Shown here: positions 154-21,857 of the stretch, in pieces
Layout of the letters: each line of letters starts with the position of its first letter
Position numbering within the stretch: the stretch's first letter is position 1
From: Faecalicatena faecalis
GTDB taxonomy: Bacteria > Bacillota > Clostridia > Lachnospirales > Lachnospiraceae
Assembly (NCBI RefSeq): GCF_012524165.2
Contig: NZ_JABACJ020000040.1
Location: 1-21,857, forward strand
Direction of reading: 5' to 3'
DNA length: 21,857 nt
Program-made: the position numbers and the translations under genes
The notes under the pieces: model-generated
The model's input: only the letters and a program-made list of their open reading frames with translations
Told to the model about the DNA's origin: nothing
Databases searched by the model: none

Positions 154-3100
154 ATGCAGAGCCTTGTTACTGCGGTTTCTGAAGTTCCGGTTTTTGACCG
201 AGAAACAGAAATCCTATATTCCGTGCTTGGCAGATTAAAGATTGACGACATTGCTCTCAGTTATGATGAAAACGGTCTTGTTGCAAGGGACAGCGATAAC
301 GAATGGCACGGTGCAGAGTTTTATCATTTCCTTGTTGATGAAGCCTTTGTATTTGAAGATGACGGTTCTGTACTTGGTATCAGACCTGACTTGCTTGATG
401 ACTTTAAGGCTTTATCCGAACACAACGGCGTTGAAGTTAAGGACAACCGAGAGAAAGAACCTGAGCCGATAGTTCCCGTTTGGGAGCAAAAGAAAAAGTC
501 AAAGGTAAAGAGCTTTGACCTCCATCCGGATATTCCTATGTCGGAGCGACACAACTTTGACCTTGCTAATAATCAGGTTGAGGAAGTGAACAAGAAAGAG
601 CGTTTTCACAGAAACTATGCGGCGATTAAGGTCTTGAAAGATTGTCAAAGCGAAAACCGTTTTGCGACACCCGATGAGCAGAAAATCTTGTCGAGATATG
701 TCGGTTGGGGCGGTATTCCCGAAGCCTTTGACGAACGAGCAGGAGCTTGGCATACAGAGTATGCAATGCTGAAAAACATCCTGACGCCGGAGGAATATGC
801 GTCGGCAAGAGAAAGCACCTTGACCTCCTTTTACACTCCCCCCGAAGTATCTACCGCCATTTATAAGGTGTTGGAACAGATGGGATTTCAGGAGGGCAAC
901 CTGCTTGAGCCGTCCTGCGGTATCGGTAACTTCATCGGTATGCTGCCTAAGTCAATGGAAAACGCAAAGGTTTACGGCGTGGAGCTTGATACCATTTCAG
1001 CCGGTATCGCTCAGCAGCTTTATCAGAAATCTTCTATTGCGGCACAGGGCTTTGAGAAAGTAAATGTTCCCGACAGTTTCTTTGACGGTGTTATCGGCAA
1101 TGTGCCTTTCGGAGACTTCAAAGTCTCCGACAAACGATATGACAAGTACAACTTCTTAATCCACGATTATTTCTTTGCAAAATCGCTTGACAAATTACGC
1201 CCCGGCGGTGTGATGGCTCTTGTGACAAGCAAAGGAACTATGGACAAGGAAAACTCCAATGTCCGAAAATATATCGCACAGAGGGCGGAGCTTCTCGGAG
1301 CAATCAGACTTCCGAATGACACCTTCAAAGGCAATGCCGGAACAGAGGTTGTATCCGATATTCTGTTTCTGCAAAAGCGAGACAGACTCATAGATATTGA
1401 GCCGGATTGGGTTCATCTTGACACCGATGAAAACGGTATAAGAATGAACTCATATTTTGTTCAGCACCCGGAAATGGTACTCGGCGAAATGAAAATGGCA
1501 AGCGGTCGCTTCGGACCGGAAGCAACCTGTGAACCGTTTGATAATGCCGACCTTTCGGAGCTTTTGAACGAAGCAGTCTCAAACATTCACGGAGAAATCT
1601 CCGAATACGAAGTTGCCGATGAGCTGGAGGAAGAAGATAATTCTATCCCGGCAGACCCTACGGTAAGGAACTTCTCTTATACGGTTTTGGACGATAAAAT
1701 CTATTTCCGTGAGAACTCCCGTATGTCCCCGGTGGAGGTATCTGCAACCGCCGAGAACCGTATCAAGGGTATGATGGGGATAAGGGATTGCGTCCGAAAC
1801 CTGATTGAACTGCAAACCGAGGATTACCCCGACAGCGAAATCAAACAGGCACAGGAAAAGCTGAACACTCTGTATGACAGCTTCACAAAGAAGTACGGAC
1901 TGATTAACAGCCGTGCCAATACTTCCGCTTTTTCCGACGACAGCTCCTATGCTCTGCTCTCTGCTCTTGAGGTCATCAACGAAGATGGTGAACTGGAACG
2001 CAAGGCGGATATGTTCTACAAAAGGACGATTAAACCGCACAAGCCGGTAACGGAGGTTGGCACCGCAGACGAAGCTCTCGCTGTCTCTATGGGTGAAAAA
2101 GCAGCCATTGATATGGAATATATGATGGAGTTGTCCGGTAAAAGCGAGGAAGAATTATTTTCTGACTTAAAGGGTGTTATCTTCTTAAATCCCCTTTATG
2201 AGTACGGCAATTCTTATGAGCCGAAGTATCTGATGGCAGACGAATATCTGTCGGGCAATGTTCGTGAGAAGCTGGCAACAGCCAAAAGGTCTGCGACTCT
2301 GTATCCCGAAGATTACACCGTCAATGTGCAGGCACTTGAAAAGGTGCAACCAAAGGATTTGACGGCAAGCGAGATTTCCGTAAGGCTCGGTGCGACTTGG
2401 ATACCGCCCGAAATATTCCAACAGTTTATGTTTGAGTTTCTCGACACCCCACGCTATGCACAATGGAATATCAAGGTTCACTACTCTCAGTTTACCGGCG
2501 AATGGAACATTGAGGGAAAGAGCTATGACCGTTCCAATGTAAAAGCGTACAGCACATACGGTACTTCCCGCATCAACGCATATAAGATAATTGAGGAAAC
2601 GCTGAACCTGAAAGATGTCCGTATCTTTGACTATATCGAAGATGAAGAAGGCAAAAAGAAAGCCGTCCTCAATAAAAAAGAAACGGCAATCGCACAGGCA
2701 AAGCAGGAACTCATAAAGCAGGGCTTTCAGGACTGGATATGGGCTGACCCTGCCCGCCGAGAAAAACTCACGAAGATGTATAACGAAAAGTTCAACAGCA
2801 TAAGACCCCGTGAGTACGACGGAAGCCACATTGTTTTCAACGGTATGAACCCAGAAATCGAACTCCGTGAACATCAGAAAAATGCGGTTGCACACATTCT
2901 GTACGGCGGCAACACGCTGTTGGCACACGCAGTCGGTGCAGGCAAAACTTTTGAGATGGTGGCGGCTGCTATGGAGTCCAAACGACTGGGACTTTGCAAT
3001 AAGTCGCTGTTCGTAGTGCCAAATCACTTAACCGAGCAATGGGCGGCGGAGTTCTTACAACTCTATCCGGCGGCGAATATTCTTGTGGCAACAAAGCGAG

Positions 3101-5334
3101 ATTTTGAGACAAAGAACCGTAAAAAGTTCTGTGGTCGAATTGCTACGGGAGATTATGACGCCGTAATCATCGGTCATTCTCAGTTTGAAAAAATACCGAT
3201 GTCCATTGAAAGACAGAGGGCAATTCTTGAGCAACAGCTTGAAGAACTGACAGACGGTATTATGGATTTGAAGCGAAACCGTGGAGAAAATTTCTCCATT
3301 AAACAGCTTGAAAAGTCTAAAAAGTCCGTGAAACAAAAGTTGGAAAAGCTCAACGACCAAAGCCGCAAGGATGATGTTGTTACCTTTGAAGAACTCGGTG
3401 TGGACAGGCTCTTTATCGACGAGAGCCATTATTACAAGAACCTCTATCTTTACACCAAAATGCGTAATGTGGGCGGTATCGCTCAAACGGAAGCACAGAA
3501 ATCCTCCGACCTGTTTATGAAGTGCCGATACCTTGACGAGCTTACAGGCGGTCGAGGAACGATATTTGCGACCGGTACTCCTATCTCAAACAGTATGGTG
3601 GAACTCTATACCATTCAGCGATACTTGCAGTACAACACGCTTGTGAAAAACAACTTGCAACACTTCGACTCGTGGGCAAGTACCTTCGGAGAGACTGTAA
3701 CAGCTGTTGAGCTTACCCCGGAGGGAACGGGTTACAGAGCGAAAACCCGCTTTGCAAAATTCTATAACCTTCCGGAGCTTATGGCGATGTTTAAGGAGGT
3801 TGCCGACATTAAGACGGCGGATATGCTGGAGCTGCCTGTGCCGGAAGCACACTTCCACAATGTTGCGGTCAAGCCGTCGGAAATGCAGAAAGAAATGGTT
3901 GCTTCCCTTGCGGAACGAGCCGAGAAAGTCCGTGGTGGCGGTGTGGATTCGAGTGTAGATAATATGCTCAAAATCACAAACGACGGCAGAAAGTTGGCTC
4001 TTGACCAGCGTATGCTCAACGATATGCTGCCTGATTTTGAGGGTAGTAAAATCAACGCCTGCGTCGATAACATCTACCGTATTTGGGAGGAAACAGCCGA
4101 TAAAAAATCGGCACAGCTTGTGTTCTGCGACCTCTCAACACCAAAGAACGACGGCACATTCTCGGTATATAACGACATCAGAAAGAAGCTCATAGAGCGT
4201 GGTGTCCCCGAAAGCGAAGTCCGCTTTATCCACGAAGCAGATACCGATGTGAAGAAGAAAGAACTGTTCCAAAAGACCCGCAAGGGCGAGGTCAGAGTGC
4301 TTCTCGGCTCTACGCAGAAGATGGGAGCCGGCACGAATGTTCAGGACAGACTTATCGCACTTCACGATGTGGATTGTCCGTGGAGACCGTCAGACTTGGA
4401 GCAGCGTTCCGGTCGAATTATCCGTCAGGGCAACTCAAACCCTGATGTAGATATTTACCGCTATGTAACGGAGCAGACCTTTGACGCATATCTCTATCAG
4501 CTTGTAGAGGGAAAGCAAAAGTTCGCCAGTCAGATTATGACGAGCAAATCTCCGGTGCGTTCTGCCGAGGATATTGATGAAACCGCTCTGTCCTATGCAG
4601 AAATTAAAATGCTTGCCACCGGCAATCCGTATATTAAGGAGAAGATGGATTTGGATATTCAAGTCCAAAAGCTGAAGCTCTTAAAATCCAACTTTCTCTC
4701 TGAAAGATATGCTTTGGAAGATAAGATAATCAAATATTATCCGCAGCGAATTACAGCTTTGGAAAACCGCATTGAAGGCTTGAAGCAAGATGTAGAAACT
4801 GCGAAACAGCACCCGAAACCAACGGACGACCGCTTTGTCGGTATGGAGGTTAAGGGTGTTTTTTATTCCGAAAAAGCCGACGCCGGTAAAGCAATCATTG
4901 AAGCCTGCAAACAGATGAACAGCCCCGACCCTATTCCTCTCGGCAAGTACAGAGGGTTTGAAACGGAGCTGCTTTTTAATACCGCAGAGCGAAATTATGA
5001 GGTTCGACTGAAAGGTGCAACAAGCAGAAATGTTCCTCTCGGCGATGACGCATACGGCAATATTATCCGTCTTGATAACGGAATTGAGAGATTTGCCGAG
5101 AGCTTGTCACTTGCGGAGAACGACCTTGAGAACACCAAAAATCAGTTGGAAACCGCAAAGAAAGAAGTCCAAAAACCATTTATCCAAGAGGAAGAATTGA
5201 AAACAAAGCTTGCCCGACTGGACGAGCTGAATATTCTGCTCAATATGGATAAGCGAGAAAACGAAATTGTCGGCGGCGAACCCGATGAGGGCGAAGTGCC
5301 GAACACACGAAAGGAGAAAACCTATGAACGATAA
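154..5334 (+). CDS. Large polyvalent protein: an N6-adenine DNA methyltransferase fused to an SNF2/DEAD-like helicase (DarB-like anti-restriction candidate)
   Basis: The ORF is 1726 aa. AdoMet motif I is LEPSCGIGNFIG (nt 904-939) and catalytic motif IV is NVPF (nt 1099-1110). Helicase Walker A is GAGKT (nt 2935-2949), the DESH box is at nt 3418-3429, motif III is GTPISNS and motif VI is QRSGRIIRQGN. The C-terminal tail is coiled-coil rich. There is no clear SD before ATG154, so the start is uncertain. Confidence 0.9.
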   Translation: MQSLVTAVSEVPVFDRETEILYSVLGRLKIDDIALSYDENGLVARDSDNEWHGAEFYHFLVDEAFVFEDDGSVLGIRPDLLDDFKALSEHNGVEVKDNREKEPEPIVPVWEQKKKSKVKSFDLHPDIPMSERHNFDLANNQVEEVNKKERFHRNYAAIKVLKDCQSENRFATPDEQKILSRYVGWGGIPEAFDERAGAWHTEYAMLKNILTPEEYASARESTLTSFYTPPEVSTAIYKVLEQMGFQEGNLLEPSCGIGNFIGMLPKSMENAKVYGVELDTISAGIAQQLYQKSSIAAQGFEKVNVPDSFFDGVIGNVPFGDFKVSDKRYDKYNFLIHDYFFAKSLDKLRPGGVMALVTSKGTMDKENSNVRKYIAQRAELLGAIRLPNDTFKGNAGTEVVSDILFLQKRDRLIDIEPDWVHLDTDENGIRMNSYFVQHPEMVLGEMKMASGRFGPEATCEPFDNADLSELLNEAVSNIHGEISEYEVADELEEEDNSIPADPTVRNFSYTVLDDKIYFRENSRMSPVEVSATAENRIKGMMGIRDCVRNLIELQTEDYPDSEIKQAQEKLNTLYDSFTKKYGLINSRANTSAFSDDSSYALLSALEVINEDGELERKADMFYKRTIKPHKPVTEVGTADEALAVSMGEKAAIDMEYMMELSGKSEEELFSDLKGVIFLNPLYEYGNSYEPKYLMADEYLSGNVREKLATAKRSATLYPEDYTVNVQALEKVQPKDLTASEISVRLGATWIPPEIFQQFMFEFLDTPRYAQWNIKVHYSQFTGEWNIEGKSYDRSNVKAYSTYGTSRINAYKIIEETLNLKDVRIFDYIEDEEGKKKAVLNKKETAIAQAKQELIKQGFQDWIWADPARREKLTKMYNEKFNSIRPREYDGSHIVFNGMNPEIELREHQKNAVAHILYGGNTLLAHAVGAGKTFEMVAAAMESKRLGLCNKSLFVVPNHLTEQWAAEFLQLYPAANILVATKRDFETKNRKKFCGRIATGDYDAVIIGHSQFEKIPMSIERQRAILEQQLEELTDGIMDLKRNRGENFSIKQLEKSKKSVKQKLEKLNDQSRKDDVVTFEELGVDRLFIDESHYYKNLYLYTKMRNVGGIAQTEAQKSSDLFMKCRYLDELTGGRGTIFATGTPISNSMVELYTIQRYLQYNTLVKNNLQHFDSWASTFGETVTAVELTPEGTGYRAKTRFAKFYNLPELMAMFKEVADIKTADMLELPVPEAHFHNVAVKPSEMQKEMVASLAERAEKVRGGGVDSSVDNMLKITNDGRKLALDQRMLNDMLPDFEGSKINACVDNIYRIWEETADKKSAQLVFCDLSTPKNDGTFSVYNDIRKKLIERGVPESEVRFIHEADTDVKKKELFQKTRKGEVRVLLGSTQKMGAGTNVQDRLIALHDVDCPWRPSDLEQRSGRIIRQGNSNPDVDIYRYVTEQTFDAYLYQLVEGKQKFASQIMTSKSPVRSAEDIDETALSYAEIKMLATGNPYIKEKMDLDIQVQKLKLLKSNFLSERYALEDKIIKYYPQRITALENRIEGLKQDVETAKQHPKPTDDRFVGMEVKGVFYSEKADAGKAIIEACKQMNSPDPIPLGKYRGFETELLFNTAERNYEVRLKGATSRNVPLGDDAYGNIIRLDNGIERFAESLSLAENDLENTKNQLETAKKEVQKPFIQEEELKTKLARLDELNILLNMDKRENEIVGGEPDEGEVPNTRKEKTYER

Positions 5335-5716
5335 AATGACACCCGATAAGGAAAGAGAAAACTGCCCTTGCAGAAAAGCAATCATTAACCCTTTTGATGC
5401 AATGATGATGGTTGTGGTCAGGAGACTTGATAAAGCATATCTCGAATTAAAAAGAAGCAAACCGCCCGCAAAGGAAGCAGAATTTGCCCTTAGAAATGCA
5501 AAGCTTTCTTTCTACGGAGAGTTGGTTCGACAGAGCATTGAAACGGTGTTTTCGCCGGAAGAAATCATTGCTTTGTATGAAAACGACGACCTTGCGGGAG
5601 GTGCTTGGACTGTTTGGAATGACATCGGCTGCCCTGTTGATAAGATACTCATTATCATTGCAAAGCTCAGTATCAACGAACCGATACAGAAAGCGGTTGC
5701 CGATTTGCTGATGTAG
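5324..5716 (+). CDS. Hypothetical protein (130 aa)
   Basis: AAGGAG at 5311-5316 lies 7 nt upstream of ATG5324. This start overlaps the stop of the upstream gene by 11 nt. The ORF-track start at 5267 lies deep inside the upstream gene and has no SD. I recognise no motif. Confidence 0.55.
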   Translation: MNDKMTPDKERENCPCRKAIINPFDAMMMVVVRRLDKAYLELKRSKPPAKEAEFALRNAKLSFYGELVRQSIETVFSPEEIIALYENDDLAGGAWTVWNDIGCPVDKILIIIAKLSINEPIQKAVADLLM

Positions 5717-5723
5717 AACGGCG

Positions 5724-6686
5724 GTGATACCTATGCCGTATATTGCACCGGAAGTCATAACCGAAGCCAAACGAATGGATTTATTAACCTATCTCAGAGA
5801 GTATGAACCGGGCGAGCTTGTCAAGTTTTCAAGCAACACCTACACCACAAGAACCCACGACAGTTTGAAGATTTCCAACGGAAAATGGATGTGGTGGTCG
5901 AGAGGTATCGGGGGCAAATCCGCCCTCGATTACCTTATCAAAGTCCGTGGAATGGATTTTGTGCAGGCGGTTCAGACCATTATGGGAAACGGTTCAGTCA
6001 GCTTTCCGACTTGTGAAAACATCAAAAGCTATGAGGAACAACCCTTGCTTCTGCCTGAAAAAAGTCCTACTGCCGATGTGGTATTTGATTACCTTTTCGG
6101 GCGTGGGATTGATTATGAAATCATCAACCACTGTTTGGAACAGGAGCTAATCATTGAGTCGCTCCCATATCACAATGCTGTTTTTATCGGCTATGACGAG
6201 AACAAAGAACCTAAATACGCCGCTTACAGAGCAACAAATCAATCAAGGATTATGGGCGACTGCACCGGCAGTAAAAAGCAATACTCTTTCCGCCTGACTG
6301 CCGAAAACACCGGAGAGGTTCATCTTTTTGAGTGTGCTATTGACCTGCTTTCCTATGCAACTTTGATGAAGCTGGAGGGCAAAGACTGGCGACAGTTTAA
6401 CCTTGTTTCTCTTGCGGGAGTGTATTCCCCAAAGCAGAAAATCGAGGACTCAAAAGTGCCTGTTACACTCGGCAGGCTGCTTGAAAAAGACAAAACAATC
6501 AAGCGAATTGTTCTTCATTTGGATAATGATATTGCCGGAAGAAAAGCAACCAAAGCGTTGCAGACGATTCTTTCAGATAATTATGAAGTCGTTGACGACC
6601 CTCCCCAATACGGGAAAGATGTCAACGACTTTCTTTGTAAACGCTTGGGAATAAAAGATAAAACCGAAAGGAGTTTTGCACGATGA
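5724..6686 (+). CDS. DUF3991/Toprim domain protein (primase-like or topoisomerase-like fold)
   Basis: The Toprim signature is present: a conserved Glu in HLFECAIDLLS and a DxD in VLHLDNDIAGRKA. The N-terminal half resembles the DUF3991 region typical of Firmicutes conjugative elements. The start may be GTG5724 or ATG5733. Confidence 0.75.
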   Translation: MIPMPYIAPEVITEAKRMDLLTYLREYEPGELVKFSSNTYTTRTHDSLKISNGKWMWWSRGIGGKSALDYLIKVRGMDFVQAVQTIMGNGSVSFPTCENIKSYEEQPLLLPEKSPTADVVFDYLFGRGIDYEIINHCLEQELIIESLPYHNAVFIGYDENKEPKYAAYRATNQSRIMGDCTGSKKQYSFRLTAENTGEVHLFECAIDLLSYATLMKLEGKDWRQFNLVSLAGVYSPKQKIEDSKVPVTLGRLLEKDKTIKRIVLHLDNDIAGRKATKALQTILSDNYEVVDDPPQYGKDVNDFLCKRLGIKDKTERSFAR

Positions 6687-7600
6687 AACTAAAAGAAATC
6701 AGAGAAATGTACCCGGAGGGTACGCAGATTGTACTCACTGAAATGGCTGGAGAAAGTCAAATGCCCTACGGTCTGAAAGGAACGGTTAAGTTTGTTGACG
6801 ACGCCGGACAGATTCATATGAGTTGGGAAAACGGAAGCTCTCTCGCTTTGAATATTCACGAAGATACCTTTGAAAAGGTCGAAGCACCGGAGAAGATTTC
6901 CGTCATTCTCGTTGAGCCGGGCAGGTATCCGAAGCTCATTGAGATTGAGGATACGCTGGAAGCAATGCAGTCTCTTGTGGAGGGAGATATTGAAGAATAT
7001 ATGCCCTTTGAGGACGATGTTGCCATCATCTGCAACGATGAAGGAAAGATGAACGGCTTGCCGCTGAACAGGGCTGTTTATTCCGAGCCTGAGAATGTTG
7101 AGATGAGTTATCCGCAGTTGAAAGCTCATTTCCGGCAGGTAGAAAAAGAAAGAAACCACACGACCGGATATATTGTTTTTACGGCTGACAGCTTTGACAA
7201 GCCATACACAGAGGAACAAAGAACCTATGTTGTCAGCAGTAACAATAAGGCTTTCATTGAGGGTATGGGCGGATATTCTATCTATGCTTCTTCCCTTGAC
7301 GGGTCGGATAAATGTGTGCGACTGGAAGCGTATATGGCTGATGAACACGGTGGCAAGGACGGTTGGAAGATTGAAAAATGTTATGTGAAAGATGACAGCA
7401 ACCGTGAAATGCTCGACATTATTGCCGGCAAGTTCTTCATTGCTTACGCACCGATTGAGTCGGAAAAGTTTCTCAGTATGCCGAAAGAACTGGCTCGTAA
7501 GTACGAGGAAAAGTTCAAATACCCGGAGAGATTTTACAAGTCTTTGGACGGTATTGAAGCAAAGCCGTATAAGCCTGTCTCAAAGGATATGGAGAGATAA
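6683..7600 (+). CDS. DUF4314-like N-terminus plus a DUF3846-like domain protein
   Basis: The start forms an ATGA overlap with the upstream stop. The N-terminal YPEGTQIVLTEM...GTVKFVDDAGQIHMSWENGSSLAL resembles DUF4314. VILVEPGRYPKLIEIEDTLEAMQSLVEGDIE...PFEDDVAIICNDEGKMNGLPLNRA and the later DIIAGKFFIAY...KYEEKFKYPERF resemble DUF3846. These assignments are from recall of family consensus. Confidence 0.65.
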   Translation: MKLKEIREMYPEGTQIVLTEMAGESQMPYGLKGTVKFVDDAGQIHMSWENGSSLALNIHEDTFEKVEAPEKISVILVEPGRYPKLIEIEDTLEAMQSLVEGDIEEYMPFEDDVAIICNDEGKMNGLPLNRAVYSEPENVEMSYPQLKAHFRQVEKERNHTTGYIVFTADSFDKPYTEEQRTYVVSSNNKAFIEGMGGYSIYASSLDGSDKCVRLEAYMADEHGGKDGWKIEKCYVKDDSNREMLDIIAGKFFIAYAPIESEKFLSMPKELARKYEEKFKYPERFYKSLDGIEAKPYKPVSKDMER

Positions 7601-7612
7601 AAGTCAATCTAT

Positions 7613-7703
7613 GGGGCAACCCTGAGTGTCTGCATAATCTTAGCGAGCAGACCATTTGGATAACCACAGGTTTCCAAACGGTACACTCGTTAGGGGTTGC
7701 CCC
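7613..7703. promoter_or_regulatory. Candidate oriT: an imperfect long-range inverted repeat in the only sizeable intergenic gap upstream of mobC-relaxase
   Basis: The left arm is GGGGCAACCCTGAGTGT (7613-7629) and the right arm is ACACTCGTTAGGGGTTGCCCC (7683-7703). The outer 10 bp and inner 6 bp are perfectly complementary around a small asymmetric bulge, with a 53-nt spacer. The position immediately 5' of the relaxosome genes is typical for an oriT. Confidence 0.4.
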
Positions 7704-7734
7704 TAATACCCCAAGCAAGAAAGGAGCATAAGCT

Positions 7735-7890
7735 ATGCGGGAGATAGCATTGGTCGCCGCCGGGTTAATCATCGGCGGCTCTTTCGGAGTAACAACAATG
7801 TGCCTGTTTCAGATAAACCGGGACAGACACTATATTTACAGAAAGGACAGCGATAAAAATGAGGAAAAGAAACATTCAGAAGATTGTTAG
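7735..7890 (+). CDS. Small membrane peptide (51 aa, DUF3789-like); not in the ORF track
   Basis: AAAGGAG at 7720-7726 lies 8 nt upstream of ATG7735. The product is MREIALVAAGLIIGGSFGVTTMCLFQINRDRHYIYRKDSDKNEEKKHSEDC, with one hydrophobic helix and a charged tail. The TAG stop is at 7888-7890. It overlaps the mobC start by 32 nt. Confidence 0.45.
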   Translation: MREIALVAAGLIIGGSFGVTTMCLFQINRDRHYIYRKDSDKNEEKKHSEDC

Positions 7891-14523: not shown

Positions 14524-14709
14524 ATGAAGAAAAACAAGAAAAATAACGATAGATGGCAGGGCTATACGCCTGCCGACTGCGACTGCAAATATTGTGTGTA
14601 CTACGGAGGAAAGAAAAACGGCAATGTAATTTGCCTTGCGGACGCCTGCGTCTGCTCTGATGAAATCCGTCACGCAAAACAGGCATATCGCAGAGAAAGG
14701 AGCTTTTGA
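14524..14709 (+). CDS. Small cysteine-rich protein (Cys_rich_VLP-like), 61 aa
   Basis: GGGAGG lies upstream of the ATG. It has six Cys arranged CxCxxC...CxxxxCxC. Its stop, TGA at 14707-14709, shares one nt with the prgI-like ATG. Confidence 0.6.
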   Translation: MKKNKKNNDRWQGYTPADCDCKYCVYYGGKKNGNVICLADACVCSDEIRHAKQAYRRERSF

Positions 14710-15068
14710 TGGAAGTCAAAATTAACCGAGAGATACGAAACTATACAGAGTCAATGTTTTTTGGACTGTCGCTCAGACAGTTCATTTTTTCTGTTCTCGC
14801 CTGTGCGGTAGCGGTAGGACTTTACTTTCTCTTAAAACCGTACCTTGGAACAGAAACCGTATCGTGGGTGTGCATTTTGGGAGCTGCCCCTTTTGCGGCT
14901 CTAGGCTTTGTGAAATACAACGGAATGACAGCTGAGAAATTTATATGGGCGTGGATTAAGTCCGAGTTCCTTATGCCGAAAAAGCTGGTTTTTCATTCCA
15001 CCAACACCTATTACGAATTGATGAAATCGACAATCGAACAAAAACAAAAAATCAAAAAGGAAAATTGA
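14709..15068 (+). CDS. PrgI-family (VirB3-like) T4SS membrane protein
   Basis: INREIRNYTESMFFGLSLRQFIFSVLACAVAVGLYFLL is followed by a second TM helix, the typical PrgI/VirB3 pattern. It sits upstream of virB4. ATG14709 is preferred over the ORF-track TTG14706. Confidence 0.8.
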   Translation: MEVKINREIRNYTESMFFGLSLRQFIFSVLACAVAVGLYFLLKPYLGTETVSWVCILGAAPFAALGFVKYNGMTAEKFIWAWIKSEFLMPKKLVFHSTNTYYELMKSTIEQKQKIKKEN

Positions 15069-15082
15069 ACAGTTTTTCGGGA

Positions 15083-15111
15083 TTGACAAGTAAGCATTGT
15101 TTAATTATAAT
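15083..15111 (+). promoter_or_regulatory. Consensus sigma-A/sigma-70 promoter for the nucleotidyltransferase cassette
   Basis: TTGACA (15083-15088), a 17-nt spacer, then TATAAT (15106-15111). Both hexamers are perfect. It lies 53 nt upstream of ATG15165, which has AAAGGAG 7 nt upstream. Confidence 0.65.
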
Positions 15112-15164
15112 AATATGATTTAGCATTAGCTGAATGGACGGCTTGGGAAGAAAGGAGTTTTACT

Positions 15165-15821
15165 ATGTACGAGTATGTAAATGACAAACAATTTCTGAGC
15201 CGTATGCGTTCTCTTTGTGGAGATATAATGCAAGACCTTTGTCACACATTGAAAGAAGAATATGACATTGGTGCTTCATTCTACCTTGTGGGGAGCGGTG
15301 CAAAAAATCTAATAATGCAAAATGCCAACAGACCTATTGACTTGGACTATAACCTTGAAATCACGAGAATAGATGACTGGGAGGATTGTAGAAACATCAA
15401 GGAGTGTGTCAGAAAGGCTTTTAATACGGTTCTTCGGAAACACGGATGGAATGACTGTGAAGATTCAACATCATCACTAACTACGGAGAAGCGCTGTTTC
15501 ACTCAGGGCAATGATACAGATTTTTCAATAGATGTCTGTATTGTCTGTGAGGATGTTGACGGCAATTATCACCGCTTAATTCACGAAAAAACAGGCTTTT
15601 CTTATTATGATAAGTATTTTTGGAATCAAGCACCTAATTCAAGGCGACTCAAAGAAAAGGCTGATTATATTAAAAGCAAAGGCAAATGGGCATTAGTCAG
15701 AGAACAGTACAAAAGAATAAAAAACAAGTATTTGACCTCAAATGACTATAACCATTCTTCGTTTATTTGTTATATTGAAGCTGTAAACAATGTTTATAAC
15801 TCAAGAAAGCACTGGGATTAA
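15165..15821 (+). CDS. Minimal Pol-beta-superfamily nucleotidyltransferase (218 aa), subfamily unresolved
   Basis: It carries the hG[GS]-x(n)-DxD...D signature: G43-S44 (nt 15291-15296), D59-L-D61 (nt 15339-15347) in IDLDYNLEI, and a third acidic residue, D123 (nt 15531-15533), in DFSIDVCIV. A helical N-terminal lead-in and a helical C-terminal tail are present. The gene is markedly AT-rich relative to its neighbours. Confidence 0.7.
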   Translation: MYEYVNDKQFLSRMRSLCGDIMQDLCHTLKEEYDIGASFYLVGSGAKNLIMQNANRPIDLDYNLEITRIDDWEDCRNIKECVRKAFNTVLRKHGWNDCEDSTSSLTTEKRCFTQGNDTDFSIDVCIVCEDVDGNYHRLIHEKTGFSYYDKYFWNQAPNSRRLKEKADYIKSKGKWALVREQYKRIKNKYLTSNDYNHSSFICYIEAVNNVYNSRKHWD

Positions 15822-15842
15822 AACTTAACAACACTAATTTTT

Positions 15843-15872
15843 ATCGTCACTTAATTAAGTGGCGATTTTTTT
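15843..15872 (+). terminator. Rho-independent terminator of the nucleotidyltransferase cassette
   Basis: The stem is ATCGTCACTT (15843-15852) / AAGTGGCGAT (15857-15866) with one G-U pair. The loop is AATT. A run of seven T follows, ending at 15872. Confidence 0.75.
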
Positions 15873-15897
15873 ATGCAAAAGGAGGCATACAAGAACA

Positions 15898-18231
15898 ATG
15901 ATTAAAACCCTTACGAACCTGTTAAAGCAGGACAAAGAAAAGTTTGTAGTACCAAAGGGCGTACAGGATTGTATTCCCATTACCGCCATTTATGATGACG
16001 GTATTTTCCGTGTGGGCAAGGACAAGTATTCCAAGAGCTTCAAGTTCACGGATATTAACTTTGCCGTAGCAAGCCGTGAGGACAAGGAAGCAATGTTCCT
16101 TGAATACTCCGAGCTTCTCAACTCTCTTGACAGCGGAGCTACTACAAAGCTGACTATCAACAACAGACGGCTTAACCGTTTGGACTTTGAGAAAACCATT
16201 CTTATCCCCGAAACCGGCGATGAGCTTGATGTTTACCGAGAGGAATATAACAAAATGCTTCTCGACAAGGCGACCGGTGCAAATGCGATCGTTCAGGATA
16301 AGTATGTTACTATCTCCATCAACAAAAAGAGCGTGGAGGACGCAAGAACCTATTTTGCCCGTGTCGGTGCTGACCTGATTGCCCACTTTGCAAGACTCGG
16401 AAGCAAATGTGTGGAGCTTGAAACCGATGAAAGGCTGAGAATTGTCCACGATTTCTTCCGTGTCGGTGAGGAAACCGCCTACCACTTCAATATTAAGGAA
16501 ACGAGAAAAAAGGGACACGATTTCAAGGATTATGTTTGCCCGGATACAATGGAACTTGAAAAGGACTACTTCAAAATGGGAAACCGTTACGGGAGAGTCC
16601 TTTTTCTTCGTGAGTACGCTTCCTATATCAAGGACAGTATGGTAGCTGAGCTTACCGACCTGAACCGCAACCTGATGATGTCCATTGACATCGTACCTGT
16701 TCCTACCGATGAAGCGGTGCGAGAAGCAGAGAGCAGACTGCTTGGGGTTGAGACGAATATAACCAACTGGCAGAGAAAGCAGAATCAGAACAATAACTTT
16801 TCCGCTACCGTTCCGTATGATATGGAACAGCAGAAAAAGGAAATGAAGGAGTTCCTTGATGACCTTACCACTCGTGATCAGCGAATGATGTTCGCTGTAC
16901 TCACTATGGTTCATACTGCGGACTCCAAAGAACAGCTTGATAACGACACCGAAGCTCTGCTTACTACGGCAAGAAAGCATTTGTGCCAGTTTGCCGTTCT
17001 CAAGTATCAGCAGATGGACGGACTGAATACGGCTATGCCCTTTGGAACACGCAAGATTGACGCATTCAGAACCCTTACCACAGAAAGCCTTGCGGTATTT
17101 ATCCCGTTCAGAGTTCAGGACATTTACCACGAAAACGGCATTTACTACGGTCAGAATGTTATCAGCAAAAATATGATTATCGCCGACCGCAGACAGCTAC
17201 TCAACGGCAATTCCTTTATTCTCGGCGTATCCGGCGGCGGTAAATCCTTTGCGGCAAAGGGAGAGATTGAAAATATCATTCTTTCCTCCAACGCAGATGT
17301 TATTATCATCGACCCCGAGCGAGAGTATTCGCAGCTTGTAAAGGCTCTCGGCGGCGAAATCATCAATATTTCCGCTACTTCTCCGAGCCATATCAATGCA
17401 ATGGATATGAACAAGGAATACGGCGACGGAGCAAATCCGGTTATCCTGAAATCCGAGTTCATTATGTCCCTTTGCGAACAGCTTATCGGCGGCACAAACC
17501 TCGGAGCAAAGCAGAAATCTATCATCGACCGTTGTACGGCGAGCGTTTACCGAGACTATCAGCAGAGAGGATATACCGGTACTGTTCCTACTTTGCAGGA
17601 CTTCCGTGCGGAACTTTTGAAACAGGACGAGCCGGAAGCAAAGGAAATCGCCCTTGCTATCGAGCTGTTTACACACGGTTCTTTGAATACTTTTGCAAAG
17701 CCGACCAATGTTGATACGGATAACCGACTTATCTGTTATGACATTCTTGACCTCGGCAAGCAGCTTATGCCTATCGGTATGCTTGTCGTCCTTGACTCTA
17801 TTCTGAACCGAATCACACAGAACCGTGCTAAGGGTAAGCAGACTTTCATCTTCATTGATGAAATCTACCTCCTGTTCCAGCACGAATACTCCGCAAACTT
17901 CCTGTTTACCCTTTGGAAGCGTGTGAGAAAGTACGGTGCTTATGCCACCGGCATTACGCAGAATGTGGACGACCTTTTGCAGAGCCATACGGCAAGAACT
18001 ATGCTTGCAAACAGCGAGTTTTTGATTATGCTCAATCAGGCGTCAACCGACAGAATTGAGCTTGCCAAGCTGCTTAACATTTCCGACCTCCAGCTTTCAT
18101 ATATCACGAATGTTGACGCAGGACACGGACTGATTAAGGTCGGCAGTTCGCTTGTGCCGTTTGCAAATAAGTTCCCGAAGAATACGAAGCTGTATAAGCT
18201 GATGACAACCAAACCGGGCGAGGGTGTATAA
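15898..18231 (+). CDS. VirB4-family T4SS ATPase
   Basis: It is 777 aa from ATG15898. The ORF-track GTG15859 lies inside the terminator stem. Walker A is GVSGGGKS (nt 17224-17247) and Walker B is FIFIDEIYLL. AAGGAGG is at 15878-15884. Confidence 0.92.
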   Translation: MIKTLTNLLKQDKEKFVVPKGVQDCIPITAIYDDGIFRVGKDKYSKSFKFTDINFAVASREDKEAMFLEYSELLNSLDSGATTKLTINNRRLNRLDFEKTILIPETGDELDVYREEYNKMLLDKATGANAIVQDKYVTISINKKSVEDARTYFARVGADLIAHFARLGSKCVELETDERLRIVHDFFRVGEETAYHFNIKETRKKGHDFKDYVCPDTMELEKDYFKMGNRYGRVLFLREYASYIKDSMVAELTDLNRNLMMSIDIVPVPTDEAVREAESRLLGVETNITNWQRKQNQNNNFSATVPYDMEQQKKEMKEFLDDLTTRDQRMMFAVLTMVHTADSKEQLDNDTEALLTTARKHLCQFAVLKYQQMDGLNTAMPFGTRKIDAFRTLTTESLAVFIPFRVQDIYHENGIYYGQNVISKNMIIADRRQLLNGNSFILGVSGGGKSFAAKGEIENIILSSNADVIIIDPEREYSQLVKALGGEIINISATSPSHINAMDMNKEYGDGANPVILKSEFIMSLCEQLIGGTNLGAKQKSIIDRCTASVYRDYQQRGYTGTVPTLQDFRAELLKQDEPEAKEIALAIELFTHGSLNTFAKPTNVDTDNRLICYDILDLGKQLMPIGMLVVLDSILNRITQNRAKGKQTFIFIDEIYLLFQHEYSANFLFTLWKRVRKYGAYATGITQNVDDLLQSHTARTMLANSEFLIMLNQASTDRIELAKLLNISDLQLSYITNVDAGHGLIKVGSSLVPFANKFPKNTKLYKLMTTKPGEGV

Positions 18232-20793: not shown

Positions 20794-20819
20794 GATGGCT
20801 GCTCGTTTGAGTAGCCATC
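20794..20819. terminator. Hairpin between convergent genes; a better terminator for the minus-strand module and possibly bidirectional
   Basis: GATGGCTGCTC (20794-20804), loop GTTT, GAGTAGCCATC (20809-20819), giving 11 bp with one G-U pair. On the minus strand it is followed by ATTTTTAAT. On the plus strand it is followed by AAGTACATTT, a poor U-tract. Confidence 0.6.
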
Positions 20820-20827
20820 AAGTACAT

Positions 20828-21154
20828 TTACCATAATACTGTTGGTTTTGGAATTTCAAGGTTTGATTTTATGATTTGAAAATAGTATATCGAATTTTCG
20901 GTTGTTATCATCAATATGCCATCTTTAATTTCGTAGTCATCATTAGATGATACCATTCCTTTAGAAAATACCACTTCGCTGTCGATAATAGGATTCCATT
21001 GAAAATACTGTTTATGAACAGATTTAATGATATAAAGTACACCTATTAGACCGAGATATTTTTTTCGCCAACTATCGGTTTGCGATTCACCTGATTTTGA
21101 TGTGGAACATTTATAAGTCACAATGTATTCTTTCAATATAGCTTTATTTTTCAT
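20828..21154 (-). CDS. Hypothetical protein (108 aa), AT-rich cargo
   Basis: It is the only long ORF in the AT-rich block. Its ATG (21154-21152) is embedded in the last codons of the upstream ORF (AATGAAAAATAA). There is no SD, so translation would need coupling. I recognise no motif. Confidence 0.5.
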   Translation of the reverse strand: MKNKAILKEYIVTYKCSTSKSGESQTDSWRKKYLGLIGVLYIIKSVHKQYFQWNPIIDSEVVFSKGMVSSNDDYEIKDGILMITTENSIYYFQIIKSNLEIPKPTVLW

Positions 21155-21368
21155 TGAATAACAAATAGGAATAATTCATTTTCTTTCTTGAAATTAAGTT
21201 AATTAAAGCTGAGCGTTGTTCCACTGCCCAAGAAAACCAATTATTCAATATCTTCTTTGCAGTCGGTCTATAAATAGTACCACCAATAGCTTTTTCAAAA
21301 TCAAGAATCATTTGCTCAAAAGCCTCGTCGTATGTTACTTCATATGTATATTTATCATATCTCTTAGG
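21144..21368 (-). pseudogene. Short ORF overlapping the 108-aa gene: either a 55-aa protein from ATG21311 or the 3' remnant (74 codons) of a gene truncated at the composition junction
   Basis: This is my own minus-strand translation: PKRYDKYTYEVTYDEAFEQMILDFEKAIGGTIYRPTAKKILNNWFSWAVEQRSALINLISRKKMNYSYLLFNEK*. The frame is open from just after TGA (21371-21369) down to TAA (21146-21144). There is no ATG/GTG/TTG in the first 19 codons. GAGG lies 11 nt upstream of ATG21311, which is marginal spacing. Confidence 0.35.
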
Positions 21369-21372
21369 TCAG

Positions 21373-21857
21373 TTTACAAGGAACTACACGCAGACCGTGA
21401 AACGGGCTGCTGACAACAAACGGCGGTATGCTCCCGGAGAGGGCAGCATACCGCCTGTTTTGTTGTCCGGGGTTTCCAAAGGGGTGCCCCCTTTGGCACA
21501 CGACTTTGCTTGCAAAGTGTAGTGTGTTATACCTGCTGGCGTGGCTGACGGGGGAAACGGGGTGCGGTGCTTCTTGCGCCCCGTTTGCTCCGGCAGGAAA
21601 ACAGGCTGAATTTTTGCGAATGGGAATGAGCAAAAAATCGGCCTGTTTTCAGAGAACGGCGGCAGGTATATGAAAGCCCCCGTCCCTCGTCCTACGCTCC
21701 GACTTGTGGACAAAGTGTCCCGAAGTTGTGGCCACACTCCCGGAAAAGTAGCAGGACAGCGGGCAACCGTCAAGGCTGAAATGAACGGGGTTACACCCGG
21801 CCTTGACCGCCGCCCGCCGCCCCGCTGGATGGGTGGACAAGGCGGCCAATCCCTCAA
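21373..21857. other. GC-rich, ORF-poor, hairpin-dense region of unknown identity, cut by the window edge; a structured RNA or ssDNA element is suspected
   Basis: At least six non-trivial stem-loops are listed in the findings. The ORF-track ORFs here (21384..21857-, 21428..21673+, 21649..21849-) have Pro/Arg/Gly/Cys-rich junk composition and no SD. Composition jumps abruptly from the AT-rich block at about 21370. Confidence 0.5.
21413..21466. terminator. Strong A-tract / hairpin / T-tract element, shaped like a bidirectional intrinsic terminator
   Basis: The stem is GGCGGTATGCT-CCC (21422-21435), loop GGAGA, GGG-C-AGCATACCGCC (21441-21455), giving 14 bp with one bulged C. It is flanked by ACAACAAA (21413-21420) and TTTGTTGT (21459-21466). 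Confidence 0.5.

Follow-up and report, generated by a model that had tools for sequence, protein, structure and literature searches.

We analysed a 21,857 nucleotide (nt) stretch of contig NZ_JABACJ020000040.1 of Faecalicatena faecalis (hereafter the window, whose coordinates are used throughout), in which a Firmicutes-type conjugation module encodes a NikA-like protein, a relaxase, a DUF3801 protein, VirD4, a pilin-like protein, VirB6-like, PrgI and VirB4 proteins, a sortase and a CHAP hydrolase. Between the prgI-like and virB4-like genes of its type IV secretion system (T4SS) operon lies a small cassette with a single open-reading frame (ORF), which an initial annotation, made from the sequence alone, assigned to a Pol-beta nucleotidyltransferase (NTase). 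We describe the cassette as an accessory insert of this integrative and conjugative element (ICE), its product as a probable cGAS/DncV-like enzyme of reduced size, and the RNA leader that precedes the gene.

The cassette between prgI and virB4

The prgI stop codon (15068) and the virB4 ATG (15898) are separated by 829 nt, and the features first reported for this gap were all present: the promoter, the Shine-Dalgarno (SD) sequence (AAAGGAG, 15151–15157, 7 nt 5′ of the ATG at 15165), the 218 amino acid (aa) ORF and the terminator (Table 1). The promoter is the sole 12/12 match to the sigma-A-type consensus in the 5.5 kb scanned (13.0–18.5 kb), and in homologous cassettes a promoter is also found at an equal distance from the leader hairpin. 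The reported shift in composition was confirmed, with a GC content of 0.33–0.40 over 14.8–16.2 kb against ~0.46 either side. DNA homology with other loci spans ~15074/15104 to ~15885, taking in promoter, leader, ORF, terminator and trailing SD, and the first four of these recur as a single homology unit in unrelated genomic contexts, therefore the recognition of a cassette, and of an independent expression unit as originally proposed, rests on more than consensus matching. As only 25 nt lie between the terminator and the virB4 ATG, we infer that virB4 expression must rely on read-through of the terminator.

Comparison with related elements showed that the junction is usually empty. A replicon of Monoglobus pectinilyticus carries the same flanks at 96.5% identity without the 831 nt, and its prgI and virB4 genes overlap by 8 nt. 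Aligned with this empty site, the insert has changed the last codons of prgI (ending QKQKIKKEN-stop here, whilst the C-terminal end at the empty site diverges after EQKQK and overlaps the virB4 start) and has left the virB4 SD unaltered. Scanning metagenome contigs for the conserved prgI 3′ end returned at least 120 contigs, not a random sample; among the matches listed, the prgI–virB4 junction was empty in 101 of 120 (11 of the 101 reading exactly CAAAA/GGAGG), the cassette was present in 18, and the one remaining contig (L226, with an ‘other’ junction) turned out to be unrelated sequence. In a sister T4SS lineage a 64–70% identical cassette copy sits at the next junction upstream, where the virB6-like gene meets prgI. 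The cassette is a self-contained accessory insert, and the near-identical element together with the empty contigs bears out its earlier description as cargo rather than core.

The ORF listing gave no further plausible ORF within the insert, a recombinase ORF included, and no terminal inverted repeats were found at the insert, the junctions bearing just the 5 nt CAAAA direct repeat; on these grounds an identity as a transposon, insertion sequence or integron cassette was rejected. Separately, the last codons of the NTase ORF (AAGCACTGGGATTAAAAC, 15807–15824) and the prgI-end/virB4-start sequence (AAGAACAATGATTAAAAC, 15891–15908) are identical at 14 of 18 positions, a similarity that could be fortuitous or could have been left by the recombination from which the junction arose.

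Related loci were gathered with an 11-sequence alignment, and neighbours were counted over 80 species-representative loci, ~20 of which lie in a T4SS operon beside prgI and ~60 of which have no T4SS gene nearby. This distribution bears on the proposal that the cassette is an internal promoter for virB4, srtB and CHAP, with the ORF a passenger of little function. A consensus promoter 0.8 kb 5′ of virB4, a moderate terminator and an SD at the cassette 3′ end would suit that role, as would cassettes at two junctions beside prgI in T4SS operons. We nevertheless regard it as very unlikely, given the ~60 of 80 family loci outside T4SS operons, the ability of 101 of the 120 listed related ICE contigs to manage without a cassette, and an ORF in which strong purifying selection keeps the catalytic residues and many more down to 26–31% identity.

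Table 1 Features of the cassette and its junctions in the window.
Feature	Position	Strand	Basis
prgI-like gene, left flank	14706–15068	+	PF12666 PrgI, E 1e-34; junction alignment with the empty Monoglobus site
CAAAA direct repeat, left copy	15045–15049	+	Junction alignment; 11 empty metagenomic sites read CAAAA/GGAGG
Inserted cassette, 831 nt (promoter, leader, ORF, terminator)	15050–15880	+	Missing from 96.5%-identical Monoglobus element; GC dip
Sigma-A-type promoter, TTGACA-17-TATAAT	15083–15111 (−35, 15083–15088; −10, 15106–15111)	+	12/12 match
Family-specific 5′ leader, ~47 nt	15117–15164	+	Covariation; covariance model R1; no Rfam family
P1 hairpin	15118–15124 paired with 15129–15135	+	At predicted mRNA 5′ end/transcription start
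Conserved G-rich tract, GGACGGCUUGGG	15136–15147	+	Leader alignment
P2 5′ arm, CGGCUUGGGAA (putative long-range helix)	15139–15149	+	Minimum free energy (MFE) structure
NTase ORF, 218 aa	15165–15821	+	ORF translation; homologue alignment; AlphaFold2 model; Foldseek
P2 3′ arm, UUUCUGAGCCG, codons 10–13 (F-L-S-R)	15192–15202	+	MFE structure
Intrinsic terminator, 10 bp stem and T7 tail	15843–15872 (hairpin 15843–15866)	+	−11.9 kcal/mol; z −5.1
CAAAA direct repeat, right copy	15876–15880	+	Junction alignment
virB4 SD (GGAGG, 15881–15885) and virB4-like ATPase gene (ATG 15898), right flank	15881–18231	+	P-loop_TraG/DUF87/AAA_10

The nucleotidyltransferase and its fold

Residue conservation was measured over 62 homologues of 31–57% identity. 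G43, D61 and L138 are invariant, and S44, D59, N63, K79, S101, D123, R137, K142, W153, Y182, K186, N187, S199 and N208 are at least 90% conserved. The retention of catalytic and other residues at this level of identity indicates a probably active enzyme under purifying selection. The catalytic signature from which the Pol-beta assignment had been made (G43-S44, D59xD61, D123) is conserved and sits on the expected strands of an AlphaFold2 model with a predicted local distance difference test score (pLDDT) of 97 and a predicted template-modelling (TM) score of 0.89; the modelled fold is Pol-beta/cGAS-like and the assignment stands.

In a Foldseek comparison of this model with the PDB, the top 50 matches were exclusively cGAS/DncV-like nucleotidyltransferases (CD-NTases), cGAS or MiD51, with probability 1.00 and TM scores normalised to the query of 0.45–0.64. 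The best match was DwCdnB (E 2e-7, query-normalised TM 0.63), and ClCdnE, BfCdnB, EmCdnE, CdnC, DncV, CdnG and CdnD were also among the 50; the only match in the BFVD viral fold library, to a giant virus, was uninformative. Sequence searches with the window protein found no match to Pfam or PADLOC hidden Markov models (HMMs) at E up to 10, 0 families in NCBIfam and no match among PDB sequences, and the 62-sequence profile likewise matched nothing in PDB sequences or Pfam, with no family member reaching significance against a Pfam NTase family. Fifteen of the 62 relatives, however, match the PADLOC ‘Cyclase’ model PDLC00795 (best E 1e-8) of the cyclic-oligonucleotide-based antiphage signalling system (CBASS), and others match six further cyclase models. 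These alignments pair family residues ~8–168 with model positions ~24–170 of 316–466. As the HMM coverage stops at ~170 and the fold matches CD-NTases, the window protein is homologous to the N-terminal half of CD-NTases, comprising the spine helix and catalytic core.

The complete bilobed CD-NTase architecture is absent. At 218 aa, compared with ~270–390 aa for the matched PDB chains, the window protein lacks the large C-terminal helical lobe, which in CD-NTases shapes the nucleotide pockets and in place of which the model has ~55 residues folded as three short helices after residue 160. The model thus depicts a truncated, probably active NTase, which we label cGAS/DncV-like and do not file as a bona fide CBASS cyclase.

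Four functions had been left open by the initial annotation, namely a SMODS/CD-NTase-like signal synthase, an anti-defence enzyme, a small-molecule or antibiotic NTase, and an enzyme modifying proteins or nucleic acids. The fold neighbours and the CBASS cyclase HMM matches of relatives favour the first, and a known antibiotic NTase is disfavoured. Pol-beta NTases include many resistance enzymes, and resistance cargo of the Lnu/ANT kind, with an attenuator-like leader, would be consistent with a stand-alone cargo gene having its own promoter and leader; some ICE copies (L010, L011) also bear a gene for an EF-G-like GTPase of the tetracycline ribosomal-protection kind. No NCBIfam, Pfam or PDB sequence was matched, however (NCBI's resistance models being, we presume, within the NCBIfam library), no KNTase, Lnu or ANT structure appeared in the top 50 fold matches, the leader encodes no conserved leader peptide, and relatives occur in defence islands and adjoin a PIN7 nuclease gene. 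A known resistance NTase is therefore unlikely, and small-molecule or antibiotic modification in general strikes us as most improbable.

A conserved 5′ leader RNA

Between the −10 box and the ATG lies a leader which the initial annotation did not list and which is conserved across the whole family. Its consensus reads GAUUUAG-loop-CUAAAU, then GGnnGGyUUGGG, then GAAAGGAG. The P1 hairpin is paired in 93.4% of cells, with compensatory changes in 4 of its 7 pairs and a covariation of 0.27 against 0.145 in shuffles (0/500). The covariance model built on the leader (R1) gave 78 matches in 0.97 Mb, each ending at an NTase start codon and none elsewhere; apart from the window, the leader lies 5′ of the NTase start in L001–L108, L229–L234, L288, L298, L306 and L343. 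R1 also matches 5′ of homologues with 26–36% protein identity, where UGGGCGGCUUGGGA is nearly unchanged. By these comparisons the leader is better conserved than the protein, persisting at 26% protein identity, and is a conserved element specific to the NTase gene family. An Rfam cmscan of 15000–15950 at E up to 10 gave nothing over the leader save a chance snoRNA-like match (E 2.9), and most matches to a G-rich-tract pattern in viral contigs were due to chance, the four genuine ones once more lying before NTase genes.

Two other interpretations of the leader were set aside. An attenuating leader peptide was rejected, as the apparent ATG-ATT-TAG has ACG or GCG in many homologues. A DNA operator at P1 is disfavoured by the variable loop length and by G.U pairs that occur on the + strand only, since the opposite strand would give A.C mismatches.

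The MFE structure contains a further, putative long-range helix (P2) that encloses the SD and AUG. In 24 window-like sequences it is 94% paired, with wobble-compatible one-sided changes only, and in this subgroup alone does its duplex score below codon shuffles (z −2 to −4). In the ‘MYHYLDD’ subgroup, the P1 3′ arm can instead pair with codons 1–6, an arrangement mutually exclusive with P1. Pairing of the G-rich tract with early coding sequence holds in the window-like subgroup only, and was therefore rejected as the general cause of tract conservation. Candidates for the near-invariance of the tract are binding of a conserved host factor, of the NTase or of a small ligand, and folding into a two-tier G-quadruplex in which the SD takes part.

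The leader probably confers post-transcriptional control. Because a deeply conserved, structured leader lies between promoter and start codon, the earlier suggestion that the NTase is probably expressed constitutively is doubtful.

Distribution, neighbours and possible roles

At 90% identity the family falls into 1,459 clusters, and at 50% it is reduced to 656 representatives. The index of the assembly collection lists the exact window protein in 8988 blocks, and every long contig inspected has it between the prgI and virB4 genes of the same ICE. Bariatricus, Brotonthovivens, Faecalicatena, Oscillospiraceae and Streptococcus suis are among the named hosts and sources, and Lachnospiraceae and other Bacillota also host the exact protein. 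By far the most abundant is the solo, ICE-borne form. Searches by tblastn found no match in PLSDB plasmids and two weak matches in fecal phages, of uninformative context, and our literature searches found no paper on the NTase gene. The exact protein thus ranks with the accessory genes assembled most often from conjugative elements of gut Bacillota, yet has neither a name nor a Pfam family. Two variant copies were also seen: in L138 a 5′ portion of virB4, joined to the CHAP gene, comes after the cassette (a deletion variant), and a 1197 nt contig (P0001) encodes a TnpV-domain protein whose frame stays open across the distal leader and continues into an identical NTase ORF, which could be a further cassette context or an assembly chimera.

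The window NTase was originally described as having no partner gene, which holds for this copy, where virB4 follows directly after the terminator and the insert has no other ORF, but does not extend to the whole family, as some relatives are partnered or fused to PIN7. No neighbour was universal across the 80 loci. In 11 of them (L046, L050, L051, L056, L065, L066, L068, L069, L081, L082 and L091) a zinc-ribbon/transmembrane gene is tightly coupled downstream, starting 0–15 nt past the NTase stop or overlapping it. Within the 61–69% identical subgroup, the downstream gene encodes a zinc-ribbon/two-transmembrane/beta-sandwich protein in seven loci, a double-zinc-ribbon/transmembrane protein in four and a small acidic protein in three. 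The zinc-ribbon/two-transmembrane partner also occurs after an NTase homologue just 26% identical to the window protein, and a separate PIN7 nuclease gene lies downstream of a relative at L108 (1157–1495). L082 and L085 share flanking genes and differ in their downstream genes. A Cap15- or HalA-like identity for the zinc-ribbon/two-transmembrane partner found no support: its model (pLDDT 79) matched only generic immunoglobulin-like sandwiches, none at E ≤0.001.

Other relatives adjoin nucleases or lie amongst defence genes. P0230 is an NTase-PIN7 fusion, P0248 has a separate PIN7 nuclease gene downstream, L052 and L061 have an RnlB-antitoxin-like gene downstream, and P0212 is solo between a restriction-modification system, an HNH gene and AAA_21 genes. 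A chromosomal relative (P0034, 84% identical; L001–L006) constantly abuts one HisKA/response-regulator operon, whilst its upstream DNA varies among genomes and includes AbiEii, methyltransferase and T5orf172/DUF4357 genes, with a prgI remnant in L006; the pattern is suggestive of a decayed end of an ICE now serving as a hotspot for integration. Relatives are paired with a membrane protein or PIN7, or located in defence islands, and these contexts point to a role in genetic conflict, without identifying a mechanism.

Overall, we favour, with somewhat better than even confidence, a reading in which the accessory cassette encodes a probably active, compact cGAS/DncV-like NTase that is gated by its leader and serves in genetic conflict. 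Carrying no recombinase, the cassette would have inserted at a short CAAAA repeat where prgI and virB4 of a widespread conjugative element of Bacillota normally overlap. Transcription would start from the consensus promoter and then be gated by the leader through its 5′-terminal hairpin and near-invariant G-rich tract, to which the helix around the SD and AUG may contribute in the window-like subgroup. The 218 aa protein, keeping the N-terminal spine helix and Pol-beta catalytic core, would bind NTPs via two metal ions at D59/D61/D123 and yield a product based on nucleotides, be it a (cyclic) oligonucleotide or a target that has been nucleotidylated. Such a product may act in conflict between genomes, whether in defence, toxin control or counter-defence, and the window copy would function without a cis-encoded partner.

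A number of observations weigh against this reading. The window protein itself matches no CD-NTase (SMODS/cyclase) HMM at E up to 10, and TM scores normalised to the PDB targets are 0.30–0.45, about half of a CD-NTase being present; at this size and with these scores, the acceptor pocket of true cyclases may be missing from the modelled protein. There is no effector here and most relatives are solo too, which is atypical for CBASS. Where a zinc-ribbon/two-transmembrane partner exists, it also follows an unrelated 361 aa protein, and the soluble domain of the membrane protein resembles a generic immunoglobulin-like sandwich, with no similarity to Cap15 or HalA. In the leader, P2 has no double compensatory changes and is confined to the one window-like subgroup. 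Finally, family members are named only ‘hypothetical’ or ‘uncharacterized’ in their sources, with no product, substrate or phenotype on record.

The NTase resembles CD-NTases and CBASS cyclases such as CdnB, CdnE and DncV in its Pol-beta core (GS...DxD...D) and N-terminal spine helix, these being the sole fold class in the PDB top 50, in the location of the family on mobile elements and in defence islands, and in the membrane or nuclease partners of some relatives. It differs from CBASS in that neither a Cap effector nor a regulatory gene accompanies the window copy, most relatives are solo, and the gene bears a conserved RNA leader; we know of no conserved leader of this sort in CBASS.

In Hailong and Clover, the NTases HalB and CloB make inhibitory nucleotide signals for a toxic partner (PMC13434031). 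Partnered relatives of the window NTase likewise combine an NTase with a membrane or enzymatic effector, and such systems suggest how a lone NTase could matter, although there is no sequence or fold link to HalB or CloB, the partner has no similarity to HalA and the window copy is unpartnered. By the same logic, the signal of a partnered NTase would hold a presumed-toxic effector (the zinc-ribbon membrane protein or PIN7) off, as HalB does HalA and CloB does CloA, and the solo ICE copy would supply this ‘stay-off’ signal in trans, silencing partnered systems in recipients. Consistent with counter-defence of this kind are the coexistence of solo and partnered versions of the family in the same gut Clostridia, the far greater abundance of the solo ICE-borne form, a strong promoter that fits constitutive supply, and the precedent of Hailong and Clover, in which NTases act as negative regulators whose loss is toxic (PMC13434031). 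Anti-defence genes cluster, however, in the leading region (PMC11541004), whereas the cassette lies in the T4SS operon, on what we infer to be the relaxase-distal side of a 234 nt gap at 7626–7858 that is a candidate origin of transfer, and the presumed leading side holds methyltransferase-SNF2, primase-like and DUF3846/DUF4314 genes (154–7600). Solo copies also occur in chromosomal defence islands, no HalB-like structure was found in the PDB top 50, and the toxicity of the partner is presumed. We therefore consider supply of a signal in trans unlikely; if true, it would be counter-defence by making an immune signal rather than destroying one.

The PIN7 associations raise another possibility, that the enzyme modifies protein or RNA in a toxin-antitoxin setting, either as an MNT-like antitoxin that nucleotidylates an RNase toxin (here PIN7) or as a MenT/AbiEii-like toxin tailing tRNA or RNA, with translation held down by the leader in both cases. 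As in HEPN-MNT (type VII) and MenT/AbiEii systems, a small NTase occurs with an RNase-type domain (PIN7) in some relatives, by adjacency and by fusion, and tight translational control is possible: the ‘MYHYLDD’ leader can sequester the AUG, resembling the tight control of a toxic product, and the RnlB-antitoxin-like genes of L052 and L061 fit the same picture. Unlike in those systems, neither the window protein nor the 62 relatives match NTP_transf_2, AbiEii or DUF1814, and no MNT model was matched at E up to 10. By fold, the neighbours are CD-NTases rather than MenT or MNT, the window and most loci have no toxin or antitoxin partner, and the solo form is stably kept in thousands of contigs. 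A toxin-antitoxin-type enzyme accordingly seems rather unlikely to us.

RNA-activated enzymes offer a last comparison. OAS is activated by double-stranded RNA. Staphylococcal CdnE03 is a cGAS-like enzyme activated by a structured RNA, cabRNA (PMC10686824). Here too a cGAS-like NTase is tied to a specific structured RNA, the hairpin RNA being physically linked to the gene; in CdnE03 and OAS, by contrast, the RNA is a foreign ligand, whereas the present RNA is the gene's own 5′ leader and its binding by the enzyme is putative. One could go further and propose an RNA-linked nucleotide-signalling module, in which the leader is a ligand- or enzyme-sensing switch, or an RNA cofactor or primer of the enzyme, and the ICE copy disarms the partnered systems of recipients in trans, which we think quite improbable.

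Returning to the favoured reading of a leader-gated, compact cGAS/DncV-like enzyme, what is new is that the CD-NTase lineage has a compact and largely orphan branch, which possesses a conserved RNA leader and is very prevalent among the mobile elements of the gut. The cGAS/CBASS lineage would then include a mostly effector-less branch that spreads as a ready-to-express cassette, which raises the question of what a lone signalling synthase does. The leader in turn is a candidate cis-regulatory RNA, short and clearly delimited, whose conservation exceeds that of the enzyme encoded downstream.

Elsewhere in the window, the genes at 154–7600, upstream of the NikA-like/relaxase pair, encode a 1726 aa N6-methyltransferase/SNF2 helicase fusion, a DUF3991/Toprim protein and a DUF4314/DUF3846 protein, a set that looks like a leading (establishment) region. 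After the CHAP gene, a second AT-rich stretch (20800–21400, GC 0.30–0.32) holds small minus-strand ORFs (108 and 55 aa) that match nothing in Pfam. Copies of the ICE that are otherwise identical have other genes at this site, either YpsA-like and helix-turn-helix genes or an EF-G-like GTPase gene, and it is therefore another variable cargo site. In L010 (14580–16499) and L011 (13904–15823) the GTPase gene lies just past the CHAP gene of the same ICE and encodes a 639 aa protein of the type found in tetracycline ribosomal-protection determinants. In a further, otherwise identical ICE copy (L013, 8734–13379), virB4 is interrupted by a group II intron-type reverse transcriptase gene (RVT_N, RVT_1, GIIM).

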